Source: Escherichia coli | GTDB lineage: Bacteria; Pseudomonadota; Gammaproteobacteria; Enterobacterales; Enterobacteriaceae | Assembly: GCF_965641715.1 (NCBI RefSeq) | Contig: NZ_OZ282453.1 | Direction: 5' to 3' (one strand) | Length of the DNA: 64,000 nucleotides | In this document: in pieces, positions 9,577-29,560 of the stretch | Numbering within the stretch: the first letter of the stretch is position 1 | Layout of the letters: every line of letters starts with the position of its first letter | The notes under the pieces: generated by a model | Told to the model about the DNA's origin: nothing | The model's input: only the letters and a program-made list of their open reading frames with translations | Databases searched by the model: none | Made by a program: the position numbers and the translations under genes

Positions 9577-10080
9577 TTACGCAGTGCGGCGGAAATTGAT
9601 CAGTTCTGGTTGCGCAATGCGCAAATAATCCGCGGTTTTCAAAATAACGGATTTATCCAGCATCCCTGCATTGAAGGCGATTTCATCAAATCGTTCGAAG
9701 AGTAGGGGGTCGGCAACCAGTTTGAGTTTTGGATGGAAGCTGAAAGGGGGGATCGCGCCGAAGACACAGCCTGTGAGTTCATCGACTTCCGCCGGGCTGG
9801 CCAACGAAGCGCGTAATCCGCCTATATGGCTGGCGAGTTGGCTCAGATCGGCCTGTTGATCGGCAGCGAGGATCGCCAGAACATGTTGATTTACGCCATT
9901 GCCTTTGACTTTACATACCAGTGCCTTAGCACCCTGGCCTAGAGCGGTGCCACGAATTTCTGACACCGCTTCACATTTACCTACCGCTTCATGGGTAACG
10001 ACGCGGAAATCAGCACCTTCTTGTGATAATAAAGCGATTAACCGCTGATGCGTCACGCTTCCTTTAGCCATTTCAGTCAT
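9577..10080 (-). CDS. yeaK: YbaK/ProX-type aminoacyl-tRNA deacylase
   Basis: 167-aa ORF; synteny. Confidence 0.85.
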   Translation of the reverse strand: MTEMAKGSVTHQRLIALLSQEGADFRVVTHEAVGKCEAVSEIRGTALGQGAKALVCKVKGNGVNQHVLAILAADQQADLSQLASHIGGLRASLASPAEVDELTGCVFGAIPPFSFHPKLKLVADPLLFERFDEIAFNAGMLDKSVILKTADYLRIAQPELINFRRTA

Positions 10081-21955: not shown

Positions 21956-22214
21956 GTGGTTTATCCCCTTTTTGCCGCGGCTATGAAGGGGATAGCCAAC
22001 AATGACCCCACGACTCATCTCAATTATCTCGCCATGACCTGGCTAAGTCCCAGTCCGATCTCTTGCCGTCGCGTTCACGCCTGAATGACTTCTCCTGAAC
22101 TTAAGTCTCAGACCTATTTGGCCGGTAATCCCTCTCAAATTTGCTCATTTTGCGTTCCGCCTTCCATCAACCTGTAACAGAACCAGCCATTTTCTGCGTA
22201 ATTGTGATCTGAGT

Positions 22215-22246
22215 TGTAAAACGCAGATCATTATCTGTGTTTTACA
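22215..22246. promoter_or_regulatory. Candidate operator palindrome upstream of ydjL
   Basis: Perfect 8-bp inverted repeat tgtaaaac-N16-gttttaca about 80-110 bp upstream of the ydjL start. Confidence 0.3.
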
Positions 22247-22324
22247 GATTTAATGTTGACCTCAAAAATCATGTGGGTAAGTATGATGACCATCTAAGCA
22301 AAACAAAACACAGAGGATGACGCA

Positions 22325-23401
22325 ATGAAAGCACTGGCTCGGTTTGGCAAAGCCTTTGGCGGCTACAAGATGATCGATGTGCCACAACCCATTTGTGGCC
22401 CGGAAGATGTAGTGATTGAAATTAAAGCCGCGGCAATCTGCGGCGCAGACATGAAGCACTACAATGTCGATAGCGGTTCTGATGAGTTTAACTCTATCCG
22501 CGGCCATGAGTTCGCAGGTTGTATTGCGCAGGTTGGTGAAAAAGTCAAAGACTGGAAAGTGGGGCAACGCGTCGTGTCGGATAACAGCGGTCACGTCTGC
22601 GGTGTTTGTCCGGCCTGTGAACAAGGTGATTTTCTGTGTTGTACAGAAAAAGTAAACCTTGGTCTGGATAACAATACCTGGGGCGGTGGTTTTTCCAAAT
22701 ATTGTCTGGTTCCTGGTGAAATTCTCAAAATTCATCGTCATGCGTTGTGGGAAATCCCTGATGGTGTTGATTATGAGGACGCAGCCGTACTTGACCCTAT
22801 CTGTAATGCCTACAAATCCATCGCGCAGCAATCGAAATTCCTTCCTGGTCAGGATGTGGTCGTCATCGGCACTGGCCCACTCGGGCTGTTCTCCGTACAA
22901 ATGGCGCGGATTATGGGGGCGGTAAATATCGTTGTCGTTGGTCTGCAAGAAGATGTGGCGGTCCGCTTCCCGGTTGCAAAAGAACTGGGTGCGACGGCAG
23001 TAGTAAATGGTTCTACCGAAGATGTGGTGGCGCGCTGCCAGCAAATTTGTGGCAAAGACAATCTGGGACTGGTGATTGAATGCTCCGGTGCCAATATCGC
23101 ACTTAAACAAGCCATCGAAATGCTCCGCCCAAACGGGGAAGTGGTACGCGTTGGAATGGGCTTCAAACCTCTTGATTTCTCGATTAATGACATTACCGCC
23201 TGGAACAAAAGCATCATTGGGCATATGGCCTATGACTCAACCTCATGGCGTAACGCTATCAGGCTATTAGCCAGCGGCGCTATCAAAGTCAAACCGATGA
23301 TCACGCATCGTATCGGCCTGTCGCAATGGCGCGAAGGGTTTGATGCGATGGTCGATAAAACCGCAATCAAAGTGATCATGACTTACGACTTTGATGAATA
23401 A
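22325..23401 (+). CDS. ydjL: Zinc-dependent alcohol/polyol dehydrogenase (MDR family)
   Basis: 358-aa ORF with GHE and Cys zinc ligands. Confidence 0.9.
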   Translation: MKALARFGKAFGGYKMIDVPQPICGPEDVVIEIKAAAICGADMKHYNVDSGSDEFNSIRGHEFAGCIAQVGEKVKDWKVGQRVVSDNSGHVCGVCPACEQGDFLCCTEKVNLGLDNNTWGGGFSKYCLVPGEILKIHRHALWEIPDGVDYEDAAVLDPICNAYKSIAQQSKFLPGQDVVVIGTGPLGLFSVQMARIMGAVNIVVVGLQEDVAVRFPVAKELGATAVVNGSTEDVVARCQQICGKDNLGLVIECSGANIALKQAIEMLRPNGEVVRVGMGFKPLDFSINDITAWNKSIIGHMAYDSTSWRNAIRLLASGAIKVKPMITHRIGLSQWREGFDAMVDKTAIKVIMTYDFDE

Positions 23402-28665: not shown

Positions 28666-28801
28666 ATACTCAACACGATTCACCTCTGTTTCTGTGAAAA
28701 CTGTGATGAAAATCTGTGATTCAAACAGGTTATTTTGAAAGTAAACATCGGTTATGCGATAATCGTGCTAATGTGATGTAAAAAGATACAGGGGTGTAAT
28801 C

Positions 28802-29560
28802 GTGGCGGCAAAAGACAGGATTCAGGCAATTAAGCAAATGGTTGCCAACGATAAAAAGGTGACAGTCTCAAATTTGAGTGGGATTTTTCAGGTAACCGAA
28901 GAAACCATTCGCCGCGATCTTGAGAAGCTGGAAGATGAAGGCTTTTTGACCAGAACTTATGGTGGTGCTGTTTTAAATACAGCGATGTTGACGGAGAATA
29001 TTCATTTTTATAAGCGCGCTTCATCGTTTTATGAAGAGAAGCAGCTTATTGCACGCAAGGCACTACCCTTTATCGACAATAAAACCACCATGGCAGCCGA
29101 TTCCAGTAGTACCGTAATGGAATTGCTCAAATTGTTACAGGACCGTAGTGACCTGACGTTGCTAACCAACTCGGCGGAAGCGATTCATGTTCTGGCTCAG
29201 TCAGAAATTAAAGTCGTTTCAACGGGTGGGGAACTAAACAAAAATACACTTTCACTGCAAGGAAGAATTACTAAAGAGATCATCAGCCGCTATCATGTCG
29301 ATATCATGGTAATGAGTTGTAAAGGTCTTGATATTAACAGCGGCGCGCTGGACTCTAATGAAGCGGAAGCTGAAATCAAAAAGACAATGATCCGTCAGGC
29401 GACAGAAGTTGCGTTATTGGTTGATCACTCTAAGTTTGATCGCAAAGCTTTTGTCCAGTTAGCTGACTTTAGTCATATTAATTACATAATAACTGATAAA
29501 TCACCGGGTGCAGAGTGGATAGCATTTTGCAAAGACAATAATATCCAGCTGGTGTGGTAA
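28802..29560 (+). CDS. ydjF: DeoR-family transcriptional regulator
   Basis: 252-aa ORF with a GTG start; N-terminal HTH and DeoR C-domain. Confidence 0.9.
   Translation: MAAKDRIQAIKQMVANDKKVTVSNLSGIFQVTEETIRRDLEKLEDEGFLTRTYGGAVLNTAMLTENIHFYKRASSFYEEKQLIARKALPFIDNKTTMAADSSSTVMELLKLLQDRSDLTLLTNSAEAIHVLAQSEIKVVSTGGELNKNTLSLQGRITKEIISRYHVDIMVMSCKGLDINSGALDSNEAEAEIKKTMIRQATEVALLVDHSKFDRKAFVQLADFSHINYIITDKSPGAEWIAFCKDNNIQLVW

Follow-up and report, generated by a model that had tools for sequence, protein, structure and literature searches.

A conserved motif at the ydjL and ydjF promoters of Escherichia coli as a candidate operator for the DeoR-family regulator YdjF

The stretch of Escherichia coli DNA analysed here, in the following called the window, is 64 kb long and carries gapA (minus strand), msrB, yeaC, ydjL, ydjK, ydjJ, ydjI, ydjH, ydjG, ydjF and ydjE in this order. 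The ydjLKJIHG genes constitute an orphan sugar-acid pathway, and a fragment carrying the ydjL promoter is off in vitro (culture) and becomes reproducibly active in the mouse gut (PMC6561318). The features of the locus are collected in Table 1. A scan of one genome per species returned approx. 40 loci with a close YdjL ortholog. All full-length loci show the syntenic arrangement ydjL(K)JIHG together with a co-inherited YdjF ortholog (41-98% identity), and as YdjF is present in every one of them, they provide no natural negative control. The carriers among the Enterobacterales belong to Escherichia, Citrobacter, Klebsiella, Raoultella, Yokenella, Budvicia, Serratia, Enterobacillus and Symbiopectobacterium, and the cluster occupies differing neighbourhoods in differing genera. 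A second group of carriers consists of Firmicutes and one Atopobiaceae genome, with YdjL proteins 77-85% identical to that of E. coli. This identity is far above the expectation for vertical descent and suggests transfer of the cassette between phyla among gut bacteria. The Firmicute carriers comprise Lachnospiraceae, Eubacteriaceae, Enterococcus, Anaerococcus and Megamonas. Within E. coli, approx. 1,090 of 5,422 complete genomes match only the yeaC end of the segment 21900-22400 and do not carry the ydjL promoter region, which makes the ydj cluster an accessory locus of this species.

Table 1. Genes, promoter elements and candidate operator sites of the ydj locus (positions in the window).
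Feature	Position	Strand	Remarks
Upstream box AATTGTGATCT	22200..22210		TGTGA (22203-22207) invariant in 25 genomes
Site A, weaker inverted copy, AGTTGTAAAACGCAGAT (10/14)	22212..22228		Centred 21 bp upstream of site B
Dyad TGTAAAAC-N16-GTTTTACA	22215..22246		From the sequence; identical in MG1655
Site B, main operator candidate, ATCTGTGTTTTACAGAT(TT)	22233..22251		No other site in 64 kb reaches 13/14
-35 element TTGACC of the ydjL promoter (predicted)	22256..22261	+	TTGAC invariant in 25 Enterobacterales
-10 element AAGTAT of the ydjL promoter (predicted)	22279..22284	+	AAnTAT conserved, 17-nt spacer
Shine-Dalgarno sequence GAGGA of ydjL	22313..22317	+	
ydjL	22325..23401	+	Starts the ydjLKJIHG cluster
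Like site at the ydjF promoter, AAATCTGTGATTCAAACAG (11/14)	28710..28728 (core 28712-28728)		ydjG-ydjF spacer
ydjF promoter TTGAAA-17-GATAAT	28735..28763	+	
ydjF, DeoR-family regulator	28802..29560	+	HTH_DeoR residues 6-60, DeoRC residues 77-233

The original prediction had drawn attention to a perfect 8-bp inverted repeat in front of ydjL. Both arms, TGTAAAAC (22215-22222) and GTTTTACA (22239-22246), are present with 16 nt between them, the whole dyad reading TGTAAAAC GCAGATCATTATCTGT GTTTTACA, and the claimed distance from the gene is correct, as the dyad lies 79-110 nt upstream of the ydjL ATG. Beyond what was first noted, the repeat extends to two 14-nt arms (22215-22228 and 22233-22246) that are complementary at 13 of 14 positions around the 4-nt centre CATT. 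Inverted repeats with perfect 8-nt arms and 0-30 nt between them occur 71 times in the window, compared with 39 +/- 7 in dinucleotide shuffles, the exact dyad pattern with up to three mismatches is expected 0.33 times per window, and the 14-nt-arm version, although found only once, is expected 0.5 times by chance. The symmetry of the dyad is by itself not significant. What raises it above chance is its position and its conservation across species. Among the E. coli genomes carrying the dyad region, 4320 of 4329 show at least 95% conservation over 96 bp.

The upstream regions of ydjL from 25 Enterobacterales were aligned. Conservation begins abruptly at about position 22199 and continues to the ATG, and the sequences upstream of about 22199 are unalignable. 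Two short stretches are invariant throughout, TGTGA in the upstream box and TTGAC (22256-22260) in the -35 element. Conservation of the dyad in ydjL orthologs, proposed as a check in the original prediction, thus holds for the block that encloses it, but not for the 8-bp arms. The latter show 8/8 Watson-Crick complementarity only in E. coli and E. whittamii, read TGTGAAAT and GTTTTAAA with 5/8 complementarity in Citrobacter, Klebsiella and most other genera, and differ in some strains even within E. coli.

The conserved block probably contains a sigma-70 promoter, TTGACC-17-AAGTAT, with a predicted transcription start at approx. 22291, corresponding to approx. 1861366 on the minus strand of MG1655. 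Its spacing is kept in distant genera as TTGACT-17-AATTAT and TTGACT-17-AACTAT. The -10 hexamer AAGTAT matches the consensus at only three of six positions and is too weak to be detected in a consensus promoter scan. A mapped start site was sought in Cappable-seq supplements, which contain no entry at 18613xx-18618xx, and the ydjL promoter is predicted from conservation. The consensus scan proposed an alternative promoter, TTTACA (22241)-17-AAAAAT. It was rejected because, unlike TTGAC-17-AAnTAT, it is not conserved in Serratia, Enterobacillus and Symbiopectobacterium. On the minus strand, a promoter-like sequence directed away from ydjL, TCAACA-18-GATAAT (22259-22230), lies over the centre of the palindrome. 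It is probably due to chance, since its hexamers are not conserved in other genera.

The best-conserved element of the block is not the dyad but a 17-bp pseudo-palindrome of 7-3-7 architecture, here called site B, with the core ATCTGTGTTTTACAGAT at 22233-22249. In E. coli, it matches ATCTGTG-NNN-CACAGAT (ATCTGTGnnnCACAGAT) at 13 of 14 positions. At the same position, Serratia and Enterobacillus have a perfect match (14/14, ATCTGTG-TTT-CACAGAT), and 22 of the 25 Enterobacterales reach 11/14 or more. Self-complementarity of the two halves of the site is complete (7/7) in Serratia and Enterobacillus, 6/7 in E. coli and 5/7 in most others, and the centres of the halves are 10 bp apart. Site B is centred at about -50 with respect to the predicted transcription start and its 3′ end is located 6 bp before the conserved -35 element, which it adjoins without overlap. 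The only -35 element it overlaps is that of the poorly conserved alternative TTTACA-17-AAAAAT. A weaker inverted copy, site A, is centred at about -71. It is kept as AGTTGTGAAATGCAGAT in most Enterobacterales and always at a distance of 21 bp from site B. The right arm of the dyad falls within site B and the left arm belongs to site A. Hence, the 14-bp-arm repeat of E. coli arises because two units of the approximate form ATCTGTG-WWW-CACAGAT adjoin, with the spacers AAA and TTT, and judged from the sequence the dyad is best read as a composite of site B and the weaker inverted site A.

At its 5′ edge, the conserved block starts with the upstream box AATTGTGATCT, which might serve as an additional half-site for YdjF or represent an isolated CRP-like half-site. 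At its other end, the sequence AAAACACAG (22305-22313), preceding the ydjL Shine-Dalgarno sequence, is the reverse complement of CTGTGTTTT in site B. It is part of AAAACACAGAGGATGA (22305-22320), which extends across the Shine-Dalgarno sequence and is 88% complementary to 22228-22243. Its role could be that of a downstream half-site at about +18 or of a partner in RNA pairing. Two GATC (Dam) sites are found in the block at 22206-22209 and 22226-22229, 20 bp apart and embedded in TGTGATCT and CAGATCA, respectively. Both are kept in most Enterobacterales, and a protein bound at the block could leave them under-methylated.

The motif is concentrated at the two promoters of the cluster. Sites matching at 12 or more of 14 positions were counted in 528 kb of Enterobacterales loci, with 18 at PydjL, 11 at PydjF, five in the ydjL coding sequence and only three elsewhere. 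An unsupervised Gibbs sampler was run on 15 mutually non-aligning promoters, namely PydjL and PydjF of E. coli and Enterobacillus and 11 PydjL regions from Firmicutes and Actinobacteria. It recovered site B and its counterparts de novo as CTKTGWTTYAMAGATTT, a motif common to Enterobacterales, Firmicutes and the one Atopobiaceae genome. For cross-validation, a matrix was built exclusively from the 11 Firmicute/Actinobacterial sites and used to scan both strands of the window (approx. 128,000 positions). The segment 22235-22251 came out on top with 22.6 bits, followed by the PydjF site with 16.6 bits, and the best other position scored 15.1 bits. Site A matches this matrix weakly (3.8 bits, rank 362). 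Two to four repeats of the motif, spaced at 20-22 bp, are present in several Firmicute/Atopobiaceae loci, with the last copy over the -35 element, and such an array reaching the -35 fits a repressor array.

Two further matches lie within ydjL, at 22436-22452 (+119) and 22632-22648 (+315). They match ATCTGTGnnnCACAGAT at 11 of 14 positions, read ATCTGCGGCGCAGACAT and TTCTGTGTTGTACAGAA, and recur in most orthologs including those of Firmicutes. Conservation of the encoded residues (ICGAD, FLCCTE) probably accounts for both matches, because synonymous positions, among them some relevant to the motif, vary freely. Codon constraint being a sufficient explanation, they were rejected as motif sites; auxiliary internal operators would be the other possibility. 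In Megamonas, the region upstream of ydjL (9900-10000 of locus L040) contains two differing 6-5-6 palindromes, ATGTTTACAACAAACAT and ATGTTTAAAATAAACAT. They are located downstream of a TTGACA...TATTAT promoter and replace the ATCTGTG motif, and the recognition helix of the Megamonas YdjF is unchanged. The palindromes may represent a diverged operator or the site of another regulator.

At the ydjF promoter, the arrangement resembles that at ydjL. The TGTG of the site is located 20 nt before the -35 element, the same distance as at ydjL, and 22 bp upstream of the site there is a half-site TTCTGTG (28690-28696). Other Enterobacterales keep this arrangement. The promoter itself is listed as a constitutive sigma-70 (RNAP-only) promoter (PMC3946193). 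That the cluster encodes a DeoR-family regulator, as had been assumed, is borne out by matches of YdjF to PF08220 (HTH_DeoR, 2.9e-17) and PF00455 (DeoRC, 2.4e-49). The closest named E. coli models are AgaR (152.8 bits, cut-off 260) and SrlR (138.1 bits, cut-off 350), the DeoR model gives 87.5 bits with a cut-off of 244, and YdjF is far below the cut-offs of GlpR-type NCBIfam models. YdjF thus falls under the cut-offs of all named DeoR-family equivalogs and belongs to a subfamily of its own. Its recognition helix VTEETIRRDL is invariant among the orthologs, and is uninformative on specificity because it is a family-wide motif. Few DeoR-family regulators of E. coli K-12 remain listed as uncharacterised, and YdjF is one of them (PMC4797297). 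Literature searches on YdjF and the ydj operon returned mentions in lists and screens and found no binding, ChIP, SELEX, regulon or knockout data.

Taken together, we consider it fairly probable that the palindrome reflects a YdjF operator array of two sites, placed immediately upstream of the sigma-70 promoter of ydjLKJIHG. Among the candidate binders of the sites, YdjF is the most likely, and it probably acts as a repressor. The view that symmetry and position of the dyad suit a dimeric repressor stands insofar as the conserved block adjoins the ydjL promoter; a half-site spacing of 24 bp, however, is unsuited to a single HTH dimer. Likewise, the proposed link to the regulator of the cluster is strengthened by recurrence of the site B motif at the ydjF promoter and by the YdjF ortholog in full-length loci, but it does not extend to the 8-bp arms, which are not conserved units. 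As 21 bp equal two helical turns, sites A and B lie on one face of the DNA. In the absence of inducer, two YdjF dimers, possibly forming the tetramer typical of the family, would bind the strong and the weak site cooperatively. Given the weak matrix score of site A, this two-dimer picture draws on conservation in Enterobacterales and on the 21-bp phasing. Bound YdjF would hinder RNA polymerase at the adjacent -35/UP region and might extend onto the -35 element, which holds a third weak repeat (ATGTTGACC). Autoregulation would follow from the like arrangement at PydjF. Finally, we infer that a sugar phosphate made by the pathway would release YdjF, which would explain the inactivity of the promoter in culture and its activity in the mouse gut.

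Switches of this kind are familiar from other DeoR-family systems. GlpR, the sugar-phosphate-responsive repressor of the glp regulon, binds approx. 20-bp palindromic tandem operators in or near promoters as a cooperative tetramer. The ydj cluster likewise encodes its putative regulator, and its candidate sites would be tandem palindromes by the promoter. However, the GlpR half-site is TGTTCG-like and that of the ydj cluster is ATCTGTG, and ydjL has one strong and one weak candidate site ending 6 bp upstream of the -35 element. DeoR acts on the deo operon through the palindromic 16-17-bp operators O1, O2 and OE, several of which are used together by one oligomer. A palindromic 16-17-bp operator for a DeoR-type HTH is also what we propose for ydj, whereas the DeoR sites overlap -10 regions and loop over hundreds of base pairs, the ydj sites are 21 bp apart and upstream of the -35 element, and the operator sequences differ (TGTTAGAA/TTCTAACA). 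AgaR- and SrlR-type local repressors of sugar and sugar-alcohol operons have several sites at the promoter of the catabolic operon and also at that of their own gene, with autoregulation, as we propose for YdjF, but their operator sequences are unrelated to the ydj motif. The ydj motif is thus unlike the operators of GlpR, DeoR and AgaR and represents a predicted operator for an uncharacterised DeoR-family regulator. The type of switch is conventional for a sugar operon and is no surprise to a specialist.

The same sites and the same protein would also accommodate the opposite sign, namely a FucR-like, inducer-dependent activator acting from about -50 and -71 on a promoter with a weak -10 element. 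We regard this as unlikely. The two site centres are located upstream of the -35 element without overlap, and the -10 hexamer is the 3/6 match missed by the consensus scan. In support of activation, PydjL is not among the constitutive RNAP-only promoters and PydjF is (PMC3946193). YdjF scores equally on the models of the activator FucR and the repressor SrlR, both times below cut-off. Against it, to our knowledge almost all characterised DeoR-family members are repressors, and the Firmicute/Atopobiaceae repeats extend onto the -35 element in a repressor-like manner. Moreover, the same geometry is found at PydjF, which binds RNAP alone in vitro, so that activation is not needed there. In E. coli, a site B that ends 6 bp before the -35 element would suit an activator equally well, and in combination with the weak -10 it leaves room for an activating role.

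Another protein might act on the conserved block, either CRP at the invariant TGTGATCT box or a different regulator recognising the dyad, and this appears rather unlikely. The box AATTGTGATCT matches the left half-site consensus AAATGTGATCT at 10 of 11 positions, including the TGTGA found in all 25 genomes, and its centre at about -80.5 is near the class I position. Catabolite control is to be expected for a catabolic operon, and genomic SELEX for CRP returned ydjF among its targets; the list names ydjF, not ydjL (PMC3105977). Compared with a class I site, the likeness is confined to a left half at about -80, and the right half is missing, the sequence at N6 spacing being TTGTA/TTGTG in all genera with 1/5 matches to TCACA. 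We rejected a CRP site, as only the left half (22203-22207) is perfect and the dyad has no CRP-spaced halves. In addition, the box lies outside the dyad, the cross-phylum motif at PydjL and PydjF is spaced TGTG-N3-CACA and not by N8 as in CRP sites, and Firmicutes, which do not have CRP, nevertheless keep the motif.

A joint reading, which we hold to be quite improbable, goes further. The cluster may be a mobile Firmicute-Enterobacterales cassette, a gut-inducible, self-contained unit in which the promoter geometry and the operator motif are kept together with the regulator. E. coli would moreover have refined the two operator sites into an almost perfect palindrome of 32 bp serving dual control at the DNA and RNA level. 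As DNA it would bind YdjF, and as an RNA hairpin in read-through transcripts starting inside yeaC it would modulate silencing by Rho at +144 of ydjL.

That the palindrome functions as an RNA hairpin in a long 5′ UTR originating from yeaC, be it as terminator or insulator, as stability element or as pairing partner of the ydjL ribosome binding site, is very unlikely. The predicted hairpin (22214-22247) has a free energy of -17.4 kcal/mol (z = -6.1) and is terminator-like in a scan. A transcription start at approx. 21849 inside yeaC has been used as start of the ydjL 5′ UTR (PMC7815308; fusion of Adams et al.), and an RNA reading through from there crosses the palindrome. Across the 25 genomes, 84.6% of the cells in the hairpin alignment are paired when G-U is counted, but this fraction equals the shuffle mean (85.0%), and a single pair shows a double change. 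Pairing between 22228-22243 and the complementary 22305-22320 would involve the ribosome binding site; covariation between these two segments was looked for and none was found. A Rho-independent terminator was rejected on three counts. The stem is not G+C-rich (4 G-C pairs among 15), the tail ATTTAATGTT is not a U-tract, and none of the published Term-seq 3′ ends maps at ydjL. A strong Rho-dependent termination signal (20.7-fold) has been located at +144 in ydjL (MG1655 position 1861188, PMC7815308). Its position inside the gene indicates that RNA passes the hairpin and that Rho silences transcripts reading through from msrB-yeaC once they are inside ydjL. A structured leader or riboswitch was likewise rejected, as there is no supporting covariation and an Rfam search gave no match at E <= 1, i.e. 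no known RNA family. Since the conserved promoter is located downstream of the hairpin, the induced mRNA would not contain it, and in Firmicutes the motif forms direct repeats without hairpin potential.

The literal model of a single dimeric repressor contacting the arms TGTAAAAC and GTTTTACA across a 16-bp spacer seems highly improbable. It would account for the perfect (8/8) dyad of E. coli and E. whittamii, and both arms do lie within conserved sequence, but the arms drop to 5/8 in most other genera while the block is conserved. HTH dimers span roughly 10 bp, and half-site centres that are 24 bp apart are far beyond this distance. Furthermore, the motifs obtained de novo and across phyla are centred on 22241 and the axis of the dyad is at 22230.5. 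Finally, common as 8-bp inverted repeats are in the window and despite an expectation of 0.5 for the 14-nt version, the probability of a chance A+T-rich palindrome without function of its own is close to negligible, as the sequence is conserved across Enterobacterales where its flanks are not, and the motif, whose two highest scores in 64 kb fall on PydjL and PydjF, is shared across phyla.

A defined operator motif at both promoters would make the regulator and its inducer directly testable. It would explain the behaviour of the ydjL promoter as an in vivo biosensor and provide a handle on the natural substrate, and thus on de-orphaning the ydj pathway.

Two further repeats were noticed in the yeaC-ydjL spacer. 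A perfect 9-bp inverted repeat, TATCCCCTT-N15-AAGGGGATA (21962-21994), begins 7 nt past the yeaC stop codon and is not accompanied by a T-run on either strand. In the non-conserved part of the spacer, a 16-nt direct repeat is present at 22044-22059 and 22102-22117 (TAAGTCCCAGTCCGAT and TAAGTCTCAGACCTAT, 81% identical).
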